This document shows positions 5,174 to 24,904 of a stretch of 64,000 nt of DNA, piece by piece (position 1 is the first letter of the stretch; every line of letters starts with the position of its first letter). The DNA comes from a virus (taxonomy: Duplodnaviria; Heunggongvirae; Uroviricota; Caudoviricetes). A program made the position numbers and the translations under genes. The notes under the pieces were generated by a model. The model was not told the origin of the DNA. It searched no databases and was given only the letters and a program-made list of their open reading frames with translations. The DNA is taken from the IMG/VR virus record IMGVR_UViG_3300037455_000543, positions 315,136 to 379,135 of that record; one strand, 5' to 3'.

Positions 5174-5289
5174 TGGTAGCAATGGCAGGACTCGAACCTA
5201 CAACCCGCTGGTTACAAGCCAAAAATAGGAACAGTCAATGCATTACTGCGGACAGTAAGTAAGCTGCTCTACCATTGAGCTACATTGCA
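5174..5289 (-). tRNA. tRNA-Thr(UGU) with a 41-nt insertion in the anticodon stem
   Basis: Acceptor GCAATG/CATTGC, D arm GCTC/GAGC, T arm GTAGG-TTCGAGT-CCTGC, encoded CCA; removing 5221-5261 restores GCTGG-CTTGTAA-CCAGC. Confidence 0.8.
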
Positions 5290-21032: not shown

Positions 21033-22394
21033 TTATACTAAAACTTGACCGTTATAACGGAGAGCTCCATCAGAGTCTTTTCTCCAGTTATTTATAAATG
21101 ACGAGAGGTTCTGACAATCAACTGCGAAATCCGATGTCGGATCCTTTGCAATCTTTATTGCTGCTTCTGTCACAGTAATGAACTTTTCCCCGTCATACAT
21201 CATATGGTTGTCACCAGATTCCGTAGAAAGAACTTCTTCTTCATATACTGCAGGTAATCGTTCCAAGTCAAGTTTTTCATACCCACAATCTTTCTTGACG
21301 TATATATAACCTTCTGCATCAGTAAATGTACCGTCTTCGAGTTCTTCCAGGTCTAATGCTTCATCCGGGTGTAACTGTCCCCATGCAGCTTTAAACGAAT
21401 CGATAGTTGTACTCCAGTAACGTACAGCTTTAATCTTCTTCCAGGAACCGTCTTTGAGATTACTCCACTTAAGATCATCTCCTTCCAAACCACCCGGGAA
21501 TATGTTTTTACTGAGGTTATATGCGTTGTTCGCGTTCTTCAGTTTATGTGGATCCACGCAGAGTTTATAAGTCGAATCTATTTCGGTCTTAAGATTACTT
21601 ATCTGTACCTGAGCTCCTTCTAATCCACCGTATATACTATTACGGTACTCAGTAGATATATTATAACTGTCACCGGACTTCTGTAGTTTGAGTACACTCA
21701 TACTATGGTTGAAGAAGTTACTGGCAGTTGCAATCTCAGCGCAGGACTTACTGTCATCGAATGCACACTGGAAGAAATCACATAGTTTCTGCAGGTAATC
21801 AATGACACCGTAATCTATCAGCTGGTCCAGGTAATCTTCGCAGAGTTTCTTCAACTGTCTGATCTTACGTGCAATCCATCTATAATATGTTTCCAGCTGA
21901 TCCTTACACCAACCCAGGAATTCCTTTATGTACGAAATACCGAACTCTACAGTGAATCCCGCGGAACAAACCATCTGCTGGAATTGGGAGAAATCACTTA
22001 TCACTCCCCTAATATTATTGATTAACGGTTCTACTTCGATACATTGTTTCTTCCACCACTTGATAAGTTTCTTCATTAACCATGAATCCGGGTCAAGTAA
22101 CTCATTAAGCAATGCAAGACATTTCCACAGTCTGTGACACCAGAAACTCTTATCTGTACCGAACAACGCGTTATATAACATGTCGAACAGTTCTTTTTCA
22201 TACTGTTTGACGAGATCCACAATCAGTTTGATGGTATGATCCATCATGTATTCAGCGACTGTGATAGCGGCAGTGGCCACGGATTCTATACGGTTAAGTA
22301 ATCCTTTTGCCAAAGCTGAATAACCTTCAATCGCCGCACGGATTAATTCGAGGGATCCGTACAAGTATGTACACATTAAACTGGTTGCGCTCAT
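21033..22394 (-). CDS. Late helical hypothetical protein
   Basis: 453-aa ORF; TATAAATA at 22428-22435. Confidence 0.8.
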   Translation of the reverse strand: MSATSLMCTYLYGSLELIRAAIEGYSALAKGLLNRIESVATAAITVAEYMMDHTIKLIVDLVKQYEKELFDMLYNALFGTDKSFWCHRLWKCLALLNELLDPDSWLMKKLIKWWKKQCIEVEPLINNIRGVISDFSQFQQMVCSAGFTVEFGISYIKEFLGWCKDQLETYYRWIARKIRQLKKLCEDYLDQLIDYGVIDYLQKLCDFFQCAFDDSKSCAEIATASNFFNHSMSVLKLQKSGDSYNISTEYRNSIYGGLEGAQVQISNLKTEIDSTYKLCVDPHKLKNANNAYNLSKNIFPGGLEGDDLKWSNLKDGSWKKIKAVRYWSTTIDSFKAAWGQLHPDEALDLEELEDGTFTDAEGYIYVKKDCGYEKLDLERLPAVYEEEVLSTESGDNHMMYDGEKFITVTEAAIKIAKDPTSDFAVDCQNLSSFINNWRKDSDGALRYNGQVLV

Positions 22395-22438
22395 TAAAAA
22401 TTTCCGGGGAAGTTTTTTATTTTTATATATTTATAACG

Positions 22439-22921
22439 AAAAAAGGACAGAGCAGATCTATCCATTGAACTTTAGATGTTCGGAGATGTCCATGTTAGGG
22501 TGATCGTCTTAAAGTCAGGTTCTTTGAGTTCTATCCTACACCAGCGAGTTAAACATGGACCGGAGACATCAAGCCTATCCAGGAACACTGAATAGACTGA
22601 CAGGTATGGACCATCAACCTCTGTGGGATTTACTTATAGGCTTACGATGCAGGCATTCCGGCTCACCGACTACATCCTATAATACCGATGCGGCTATCTA
22701 GGTTCTTTGTTATCAGAACCCTCTGCGGTAATATACGCTAGACTGTTTCTTGTAATACCACGGATTAGGTATAACTCGGCCGTCCGAGCCAAGAAACTTA
22801 CTGAAAGGACTTACCTCATCCCCAGCGGCTTACCCTCTACCGACAGCATCATTGAGTTGAGTTTCGCTCCGAGGAATAAGACTTACTATGTAATTGCGTT
22901 TCTTAGGGAACCTAAGTTCAT
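22439..22921 (-). ncRNA. ~480-nt structured ncRNA with its own promoter and terminator
   Basis: End-pairing TGAACTT/AAGTTCA, many internal helices, G-U pairs favour minus strand; terminator at 22439-22463. Confidence 0.7.
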
Positions 22922-22967
22922 TATTATATATAACAGTTTTCCACTGGAACCTTTTGTCCCAGTTTAT

Positions 22968-23016
22968 TAATAATATACTAACAGTTTACTAACATGTTAT
23001 AAACACAGTTACAACA
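22968..23016. promoter_or_regulatory. 11-bp-phased (T)AACA array (PhoP/OmpR-box-like)
   Basis: Units at 22968, 22979, 22990, 23001, 23012. Confidence 0.55.
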
Positions 23017-23143
23017 TATTGAACCCAGTTACCTATTTTTTGGTTTAAATATAGAAAAGTTTTCTGTTTTGTAAAGTTATAGAAATATTTAGATTTTAAT
23101 GTTAACGTTTATAAACATTTACTTTTTTACTATATTTGTGTAT

Positions 23144-24904
23144 ATGTATATTGAATTTGAAAAGCTTTCGTTTTGTAATATATTGTCCTATGGTGCCCAA
23201 GGCGCAGAGATAAAGTTCCAGCCGGGCCTCAATACAATCAGAGCTCCGAACGGTTCAGGTAAGTCTACTATGTTGGACGCTCTTACATTCGTATTGTTCG
23301 GCAAACCCTATAGAGACATCAAGCTGGATGAATTGATCAATGAAACCAATAAGAAGGGTCTGGAAGTAACGATCGACTTCCGTATTGGTAAGGATAAGTA
23401 TTCTATCACACGCGGATTGAAACCGACTGTTCTTACGATCATGAAGAACGGAAAGGAAATGGATCTTCTATCCACGAAGAAACTCACGCAGGATGAAATC
23501 GATAAGTTACTGGGGATTAACCTCAGACTTTTCAAGAATATTGTCGCCGTCGCGTGTACGAATAACAAACCATTCCTGTCGTTACCTATCGGTGATAAAC
23601 GTGCTCTGATGGAAAACATATTTAACATAGACAAGCTTGGAGCTATGTTAAAGGACGTAAAGAAGCAAAAAACAGCTTCAAATGCGGAATATTCTATAAA
23701 AAATACAGAATTATCTGGTATAAACCAGCAGATCAACGATAATAATAACTATATTTCGCAGATGGAAGAATATATTTCCACGTTTAACGAAACTCGAAAC
23801 GCGAACATCGAAAAGTTAAACGAGCAGATCAAACAGTACCAGACACGAATCAATAAAGCTGGTAAGAACATTACGTTGGCGGAAAATAAGATTACGGAGT
23901 TAACGGAATCTATTAAAGGTAAGTCTGTACAGGACGAAATCGAGCAGATAAACATAGAGATCGGTAAAACCATGTCGACTATCGAGAAAAACGGTACGAC
24001 ACTTGAGAAACTTAAGAAGACAAAACTCTGTCCTATCTGTAAGAGTCCATTGGATGAAGGACATGCGAAGAAACACCTGGAAGAATTACAGCAGGAACTC
24101 GATGACATGGAAAAGAACAAGTACCCGGTTCTTCAGCAGAAGTATGCAGAGCTTGTTCAGATTCAGAAAGAGTATAACGAATCTGTTGGATTCATTCGTG
24201 AAATCAGGGAAAAGCTTAATGCAGAAAAGAACATAAAGTCCCAAGCAGAAAACGATCTTTCCAAGGTTGAACATTCATTAGAGACAGAACAAAATAAGAC
24301 ATGTCCTGCAAACCTGGACAAGTACAAGTTAAAGCTTGAAGAGTTACAGGTACGATTCGATGCGATTAAATGTGACTGTGAGCAGTTGATAGAAGACATG
24401 AAGTTGCAGAACGAATTGATTGATATCCTTGGTGATTCTGGTATCAAGACATACTTCTATAGAAAGCTTATCGCTTTACTTAATAAGAACGTTAATGAAT
24501 TCCTGGTCAAGTTCGAGATGAATAACATTCATATAGAATTTGATGAACAAATGAAGGAATGTATCACGAAGAATATGAAGGGTAGATCCTATAATTCGTT
24601 CTCTGGCGGTGAGAAGACTCGTATTGATATGTCTATCCTACTGTCGTTCTTTAACATCAGCAGATTGATTTCTAACTGGAGTTCTAACCTGGTATTCATA
24701 GATGAATTGCTGGATCAGAACATAGATAAACCAGGTATCGACCAGTTCGTATGTACGTTATATAATATAATAGCGGAAGGTAAGAAAAACCTGGGAATAT
24801 ATATCATATCACACATGCTGGGAGAAATGAAGGTTCCAGTAACGTCATCAGTGATAATAAGAAAAGTACATGACTTTAGTACATTAGAGGTTAAATATGG
24901 TTAA
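23144..24904 (+). CDS. gp46: Recombination endonuclease ATPase subunit (T4 gp46/SbcC/Rad50)
   Basis: Walker A NGSGKST, zinc hook CPIC, SFSGGE signature, VFIDE Walker B. Confidence 0.95.
   Translation: MYIEFEKLSFCNILSYGAQGAEIKFQPGLNTIRAPNGSGKSTMLDALTFVLFGKPYRDIKLDELINETNKKGLEVTIDFRIGKDKYSITRGLKPTVLTIMKNGKEMDLLSTKKLTQDEIDKLLGINLRLFKNIVAVACTNNKPFLSLPIGDKRALMENIFNIDKLGAMLKDVKKQKTASNAEYSIKNTELSGINQQINDNNNYISQMEEYISTFNETRNANIEKLNEQIKQYQTRINKAGKNITLAENKITELTESIKGKSVQDEIEQINIEIGKTMSTIEKNGTTLEKLKKTKLCPICKSPLDEGHAKKHLEELQQELDDMEKNKYPVLQQKYAELVQIQKEYNESVGFIREIREKLNAEKNIKSQAENDLSKVEHSLETEQNKTCPANLDKYKLKLEELQVRFDAIKCDCEQLIEDMKLQNELIDILGDSGIKTYFYRKLIALLNKNVNEFLVKFEMNNIHIEFDEQMKECITKNMKGRSYNSFSGGEKTRIDMSILLSFFNISRLISNWSSNLVFIDELLDQNIDKPGIDQFVCTLYNIIAEGKKNLGIYIISHMLGEMKVPVTSSVIIRKVHDFSTLEVKYG

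Follow-up and report, generated by a model that had tools for sequence, protein, structure and literature searches.

Introduction

The RNA family closest to the locus analysed here is cow-rumen-2 (RF02947), a motif which is said to stem from the survey of 224 motifs published by Weinberg et al. in 2017. As catalogued, cow-rumen-2 is a fragment of 106 nt without described function or context, comprising a hairpin, a conserved linker and a long stem with internal loops. The same elements, and also the rumen source, are shared by the RNA described below, in which the catalogued fragment forms the centre of a body of about 300 nt.

Further RNAs have to be considered for comparison. Two of these are ROOL and GOLLD, which we take to be the Rfam families RF03087 and RF01998, and another is the RNA of bacterial RNase P, presumably represented by RF00010 and RF00011. 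In phage T4, late genes such as e and soc are also read from upstream early promoters, and simple leader hairpins hide the ribosome-binding site in these transcripts.

The structure of cow-rumen-2 was revised in Rfam 15 (PMC11701678). In the literature searched, a description of a full-length RNA was not found, and the names cow-rumen-1 to cow-rumen-4 and RF02947 were confined to one table in the publication on Rfam 15 (PMC11701678).

The window analysed here is a stretch of 64,000 nucleotides from the IMG/VR record IMGVR_UViG_3300037455_000543 (designated G000), the genome of a T4-like rumen phage with 424,163 bp, direct terminal repeats and a completeness of 100%. A gap of about 700 nt separates an ORF of 453 aa (21033–22394, minus strand) from a gp46/SbcC-like ORF (from 23099, plus strand). 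For this gap, an ornate non-coding RNA of about 480 nt with its own transcription unit had been predicted from the letters alone, and its class had been called unknown.

Identification of the cow-rumen-2 Motif in the Window

The predicted interval is a genuine minus-strand RNA gene, and its centre is the catalogued cow-rumen-2 motif. As expected from the prediction, no credible ORF is present, the longest one in the interval having 87 aa. The preference for the minus strand was also borne out, since the Rfam match, the promoter-like boxes and the terminator are all located there, and the minimum free energy is −138.7 kcal/mol for the minus strand versus −121.2 kcal/mol for the plus strand.

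At curated thresholds, RF02947 was the sole non-tRNA Rfam match in the window. It covers the full length of the model (positions 1–106) with 71.6 bits versus a gathering score of 66, and the E-value was 2.3e-11 when the whole window was searched and 3.3e-13 for the region only. The window copy contains the first hairpin, the conserved AUAGCCGCCA linker and the long stem with internal loops; all helices are present in the alignment, with four non-standard pairs and a AUAGCCGCCA linker that is short by one base. Because the centre passes the gathering score, the class of the window RNA is not unknown: it belongs to the cow-rumen-2 family and is not a new class. A strong Rfam hit had been named as an outcome that would remove novelty. 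With RF02947 the class is indeed known, but novelty survives for the full-length RNA, of which the 106-nt motif is the middle only. The larger molecule is predicted to comprise about 300–475 nt, with two pseudoknots and further domains.

In a permissive Rfam scan of positions 22300–23200 (E ≤ 10), RF02947 alone was identified, and no match to RNase P, ROOL, GOLLD, OLE, HEARO or group I or group II introns was obtained. For the three other copies in the genome and the orthologous locus of a related phage, searched at E ≤ 1, RF02947 was found together with one chance-level match. The added 5′ and 3′ parts outside of the 106-nt motif are covered by no other Rfam family, and when the region was compared with deposited phage genomes by blastn, there was no match either. 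Elsewhere in the window, a tRNA model of Rfam matches 113 nt at 5177–5289 (minus strand) with 44 bits, which was not called by ARAGORN; this stretch could represent one of the tRNA-part RNAs of the genome or else a tRNA that carries an insertion.

These searches also bear on RNase P. A divergent RNase P RNA had been brought into play by nothing more than a loose likeness of two short words to CR-I and CR-V, and the size range is similar. However, no RNase P model matched at E ≤ 10, a P4 helix is absent, and four divergent copies are present per genome. The look-alike words are located in lineage-specific loops, namely the hairpin loop forming the pseudoknot PK1 and a copy-specific loop, and are not conserved in 53 homologues. 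The resemblance is coincidental, and the probability of an RNase P RNA at this locus is negligible.

Paralogues and Homologues

In total, four cow-rumen-2 matches were identified in G000, with 108.5, 104.1, 99.3 and, for the window copy, 71.6 bits. The other three paralogues (99–108 bits) are closer to the canonical motif than the window copy, which is the most divergent of the four and forms the longest branch of the family tree. When the four intergenic regions were aligned, conservation was found to reach well past the 106 nt on either side. Three exact-pattern scans of IMG/VR followed by nhmmer yielded 53 distinct homologues, which were combined in an alignment designated A1; the alignments are sequence-based, which if anything understates pairing. 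The conserved body of the family has a length of about 300 nt and corresponds to positions 22562–22885 of the window (minus strand). This segment, read from 22885 to 22562, matches positions 13–302 of a profile of 306 positions with E = 3.4e-34 (nhmmer), using a profile that was built without any G000 copy.

The number of copies per record is four in G000 (424 kb, 100% complete) and in G001 (415 kb, 100% complete), three in G002 (411 kb, 98% complete) and one in G004 (248 kb, 98% complete). In the tree of A1, the RNAs cluster partly by phage lineage and not by locus; the label "hub" for the locus requires five changes, and within one lineage, copies from different loci are in many cases more closely related to one another than to same-locus copies of other lineages. 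This grouping by lineage over locus suggests some homogenisation or gene conversion between paralogues.

When prokaryote genomes were scanned for the pattern, most matches were due to chance; among the first 120 matches listed, the true ones are located on six contigs. Two of the six, GTDB contigs of 191 and 173 kb (L131 and L147) binned as Methanobrevibacter from goat gut, carry full-length copies of the RNA with 277 bits (nhmmer). Both probably represent phage DNA that was wrongly assigned to archaeal MAGs.

Covariation and Structure of the Family

When A1 was searched for compatible runs of covarying columns, the helices known from the core were found again, together with several that are new. 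On the structure of 57 pairs in 12 helices, 93.2% of the cells form standard pairs, compared to 71.3% for shuffles (0 of 500 reached the value of the structure) and 35–38% when the partners were slid by 1–3 columns. The covariation score is 0.563 for the structure, versus 0.18 for shuffles and 0.065–0.10 for slid partners. Among the 53 homologues, 47 of the 57 pairs were found to change on both sides.

Beyond the catalogued motif, the new helices of the family are the P1 domain, the hairpins H2 and H4 and the closing stem P2. The P1 domain at the 5′ side consists of a covarying outer stem and a CCUC/GAGG pairing, which enclose nearly invariant unpaired nucleotides; in its helix 1, changes on both sides were seen for 7 of 8 pairs, and 95% of the cells are paired. 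Two pseudoknots were identified. PK1 is formed by the loop of H2 and the linker before the core, with changes on both sides in all four pairs, and PK2 connects three linker bases with the apical loop of the long stem of the core (two of three pairs covary, 97% paired). One of the pseudoknots extends into the first six positions of RF02947, which are unpaired in the catalogued model. The core helices 8–10, which represent the RF02947 part, covary across the family. On the 3′ side, helix 11 is a hairpin with a conserved UUCCU loop, followed by a nearly invariant GGCUYGAUGUCUC block. Of all columns of A1, 21 are invariant and about 65 nearly invariant, many of them unpaired.

Several candidate elements were rejected. 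For a pseudoknot between the H2 loop and a UCUC tail, noticed by eye, a copy's own partners were no better than those of foreign lineages (permutation p = 0.57). A long-range AGCC/GGCU pairing proposed by RNAalifold clashes with the 3′ hairpin, which has up to 8 bp in some members. A short hairpin with a U run after the core was considered as an internal terminator, a reading which by eye applies in some lineages only. Conservation does not bear out the tail as a box C/D-like element or as a K-loop. Beyond the 3′ hairpin, no conserved helix was found by RNAalifold.

A small "handle" RNA with the word GCAHA-N5-UUCCUA was also observed in G000, with eleven matches (13503, 320492, corresponding to about 5357 of the window, and 414530–423355). 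It shares with the extended cow-rumen-2 RNA only a UUCCU adjoining a covarying stem, and a tie between the two is a weak lead.

Anatomy of the Window Copy

The window copy carries every element of the family; the features are collected in Table 1. The 494 nt as a whole are no better folded than shuffles (z = −1.21), so that the case for structure rests on the comparison of homologues. For the ornate RNA in its own transcription unit, promoter, terminator and the structure of the homologues speak in favour of the prediction, while the folding energy of the full interval does not.

Table 1. Features of the RNA locus and of its paralogues. Positions are those of the window unless G000 is given.
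Feature	Positions	Strand	Description
Distal promoter, sigma-70 type	23048–23075	−	TTTACA, 16-nt spacer, TATATT; 10 of 12 consensus matches
Proximal promoter	22921–22951	−	TATAAT at about 22928–22923, weak −35 box GTTCCA
5′ hairpin	22902–22916	−	6 bp; z = −2.1; copy-specific, not in homologues
P1 domain	22829–22880	−	Covarying family helix
Hairpin H2	22801–22826	−	GGUA loop at 22815–22812
PK1	22815–22812 with 22730–22727	−	GGUA with UACC; register shifted by 2 columns in A1
Three-way junction	22746–22798	−	Copy-specific; replaces the simple hairpin H4 of the family
Core	22621–22727	−	RF02947 match; 71.6 bits, cut-off 66
PK2	22725–22723 with 22652–22650	−	CAG with CUG; family covariation
R1	22606–22612	−	GGUCCAU; first of the two element copies
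3′ hairpin and conserved block	22563–22595	−	UUCCU loop; family helix 11
R2	22555–22561	−	Second copy; doubles as 5′ arm of the long hairpin
3′ long hairpin	22488–22560	−	9-bp stem; copy-specific; z = −1.19, not significant alone
Intrinsic terminator	22439–22463	−	7-bp stem, 5-nt loop, six U; z = −2.6
TATAAATA box	22428–22435	−	T4 late-promoter word before the 453-aa gene; outside the RNA, past the terminator
Canonical paralogue L001:1376–1676	G000 388134–388434		Sigma-70-type promoter; before a TATAAATA-led gene
Canonical paralogue L002:1368–1669	G000 234850–235151		Sigma-70-type promoter; before a TATAAATA-led gene
Canonical paralogue L003:1374–1667	G000 164634–164927		Sigma-70-type promoter; before a TATAAATA-led gene

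The helices that had been proposed by inspection fared differently. GGTTCT/AGAACC was identified as the covarying core hairpin of the family, and the GTTTCTTG/CAAGAAAC stem enclosing two hairpins corresponds to a three-way junction for which none of 200 shuffles was as good (z = −4.45). For GTCCATGTT/AACATGGAC, a perfect complement of 9 bp is present, but the 3′ long hairpin is specific for this copy and its z value stays within the range of shuffles. The ends of the RNA had been supposed to pair; such a pairing of 7 nt is present, but the bases of its 5′ arm are at or upstream of the position where transcription is predicted to begin, and the pairing is absent from all homologues. The GATGTAG/CTGCATC helix is weakened, since its inner CUG forms PK2 and the helix hence competes with the covarying structure of the family.

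The combination of invariant junction nucleotides with two pseudoknots is the pattern of large catalytic and self-assembling RNAs. In such an RNA, an active site could arise from conserved unpaired nucleotides and pseudoknots, or these could hold several copies together, with no dedicated protein being involved. A precedent is given by ROOL and GOLLD, which are linked to the rumen and to phages and are reported to form cages (10.1101/2024.12.08.627333). Both are large, intricately folded, pseudoknotted and rumen- or phage-linked RNAs from free-standing genes, and the extended cow-rumen-2 RNA would resemble them in these respects (PMC5737381; 10.1101/2024.12.08.627333). However, it shows no sequence or model match to either of them and is shorter, since ROOL, with an average of 581 nt, is about twice as long as the body of 300 nt. 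It precedes late structural genes, whereas ROOL and GOLLD adjoin tRNAs. No likeness to Rfam ribozyme families was found (window region at E ≤ 10, other copies at E ≤ 1). A ribozyme or RNA-only assembly is considered to be quite improbable.

Promoters, Terminator, and Transcription Unit

The predicted TATAAT box was recovered and is part of a proximal promoter, which is a partial duplicate of a distal sigma-70-type promoter (repeat family D1). In the relatives G001 (415 kb) and G003, the proximal TATAAT box has been conserved at the orthologous locus. In most homologues, a conserved (G)ACAU follows about 7 nt after the end of a TTTACA-N17-TAtAaT element, and in many cases the terminator of the preceding gene immediately adjoins these promoters; the distal promoter of the window shares its form with the promoter of most family members. 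From the proximal promoter, the transcript would start at about 22916 and have a predicted length of about 475 nt, compared to about 600 nt predicted from the distal one. Since the better promoter is the second one further upstream (23075–23048), the start at about 22916 is tentative.

At the other end, the terminator that had been claimed was found as a hairpin at 22463–22445 followed by six U, while shuffles give 0.5 such sites per region. The end of the transcript is placed here by prediction.

Between the two promoters, at 22934–23032, five roughly phased CAGTT(T/A) words were observed at distances of 20–27 bp. They were read from the sequence and in part recovered as the repeat families D2 and D3. 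Neither the other three G000 copies nor the orthologous locus in the 415-kb relative contain these words.

Phased repeats of this kind could bind an initiator, and a promoter-driven transcript could prime or open the DNA, as for oriF and oriG of T4. An origin-type element would be consistent with the dispersal of the copies round the genome, with the five CAGTTW words upstream of the window copy, and with the location of both the window copy and the third paralogue in places where transcription diverges and the GC skew turns. However, the skew turns coincide with changes of the gene strand, the other G000 copies and the orthologous locus lack the repeats, and an R-loop primer needs no conserved, doubly pseudoknotted fold. 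An origin function of the RNA is thus regarded as very improbable.

The Duplicated Element R1/R2

A short word behind GUYGA, located just past the core, was found to recur after the conserved 3′ block. The two copies were designated R1 and R2 and are located after columns 318 and 403 of A1 throughout the family. The word is GGUCCAU in the window copy and differs in other lineages; in one subfamily, the duplicated part has a length of about 25 nt. The R1 and R2 of one and the same copy align better than pairs from different lineages, with a mean score of 16.5 versus 10.9 (permutation p ~5e-5). A reading as DNA iterons was rejected as unlikely, since the words differ among the four G000 paralogues.

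In the window copy, a single complement at 22488–22496, read from the sequence, could pair with R1 or with R2. At the orthologous locus, inspection by eye found no complement to R1/R2. Competition of R1 and R2 for one partner would suit the window copy and one paralogue.

A more far-reaching idea is that the extended cow-rumen-2 RNA represents a new large functional class of giant T4-like phages, a ribozyme or an RNA-only assembly, in which the lineage-variable but matched R1 and R2 would form a programmable module for specificity or switching and would be no relic. This idea is speculative, and we hold it to be rather doubtful.

Neighbouring Genes and the Cassette

The gp46-like ORF contains the Pfam domains AAA_23 and SMC_N, and its best matches in deposited phages are T4-type recombination endonuclease subunits with 28–30% identity. 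For the 453-aa ORF, no known family was identified and exact peptide patterns found no relative in IMG/VR; its orthologues were found by searching related records. In the 415-kb phage G001, the same order of gp46, RNA and 453-aa orthologue is present. The RNA at this orthologous locus has a canonical core and 3′ domain (100 bits), and the long hairpin and the terminator are absent. In G001 (L095:845–1500) and in G003 (L094), the P1 domain has given way to unrelated sequence of about the same length; PK1 and a hairpin of the H2 type seem to be retained.

In the family, the genes downstream of the RNA are unrelated and code for a baseplate hub, a tail-tube-like protein, proteins of 999 aa, 453 aa (no known family) and 162 aa, and others. 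In our reading, the 162-aa protein may be SWIM-like on account of its cysteine/histidine pattern, without a Pfam match. Among 24 loci examined, the RNA is co-oriented with a close downstream gene at 20, in most of which no intervening terminator was noticed, and a TATAAATA box lies between RNA and gene at 13. At the remaining four loci, a co-oriented ORF is missing within 450 nt, and in three cases (L056, L078 and L047) the locus ends at a terminator with a convergent gene behind it.

An empty site was identified in the 411-kb phage G002 (L223:1452–1488). Here, the orthologue of the baseplate hub gene is preceded by only about 37 nt, consisting of the late box and the ribosome-binding site, at a position where other phages have the whole cassette of about 430 nt. 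This implies that promoter, RNA and tail form a cassette which is present or absent as a whole, and that the tail after the conserved block is a part of the cassette and not of the gene.

The usual co-orientation with the next gene, with no terminator between them, makes a leader or switch acting in cis the main rival explanation. The RNA would then be the 5′ part of early transcripts that enter the late gene, and alternative pairings in its 3′ module, with R1 and R2 taking part, would steer read-through, processing or translation. Where transcripts read through at co-oriented loci lacking a terminator, the RNA would indeed be a leader. The duplicated and co-varying R1 and R2 are expected if two strands compete for one partner, and the window copy offers such a partner in its single complement. 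The T4 genes e and soc provide a comparable arrangement, since an early-type promoter is located upstream of a late promoter and early transcripts may carry additional 5′ structure; here, in contrast, a conserved fold of 300 nt is present, which can be missing from the same gene in a relative. The hub gene of G002 does without the cassette, downstream genes have each a TATAAATA box of their own past the RNA, and the window copy ends at a terminator, as do the copies that face convergent genes. At the orthologous locus, neither a complement to R1/R2 nor a conserved helix past the 3′ hairpin came to light. Of the marks of a riboswitch or leader, a constant downstream gene family was not found, nor did RNAalifold give a conserved platform helix. 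The occurrence of the same neighbour gene without the cassette and the terminators in front of convergent genes argue that the RNA is no obligatory leader, and a role in cis is judged to be unlikely.

Proposed Role of the RNA

The explanation we favour, and consider probable with some reserve, is that positions 22439 to about 22916 (minus strand) constitute a free-standing RNA gene, the structured, non-coding product of which would act in trans as a folded RNA, with a protein or by itself. The transcript of the window copy would start at its own promoter, and its own terminator would stop it ahead of the late-type promoter that serves the next gene. The folded RNA might serve as a scaffold or partner of a protein, or it might be catalytic or self-assembling; it would be neither an antisense regulator nor an obligatory leader of the gene behind it. 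Invariant junction nucleotides together with two pseudoknots, and a strong host-type promoter of its own, point to a folded RNA acting in trans. Its behaviour as a cassette, the variable copy number of 1–4 and the unrelated neighbours point to a free-standing RNA that probably acts in trans. The analysis establishes the family membership, the structure, the copy number and the presence or absence of the gene as a cassette, while both ends of the transcript, early expression and action in trans are inferred. The covarying duplication of R1 and R2 has no place in the trans-acting explanation.

Significance for the Biology of Giant T4-Like Phages

As opposed to the catalogued fragment, the extended cow-rumen-2 RNA described here has its own promoter and occurs in 1–4 copies in T4-like phages of 248–424 kb. 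The public catalogue covers just one third of the conserved RNA. Large, highly conserved and pseudoknotted RNAs without a known function are few, and earlier cases turned out to be ribozymes, riboswitches and, recently, RNA cages. The extended cow-rumen-2 RNA is present in up to four copies per phage genome of this size range, beside late structural genes. A full-length model with boundaries, pseudoknots, promoter and variable modules would provide the right molecule for the determination of its structure, for activity assays, for pull-down experiments and for mapping in metatranscriptomes of the rumen.
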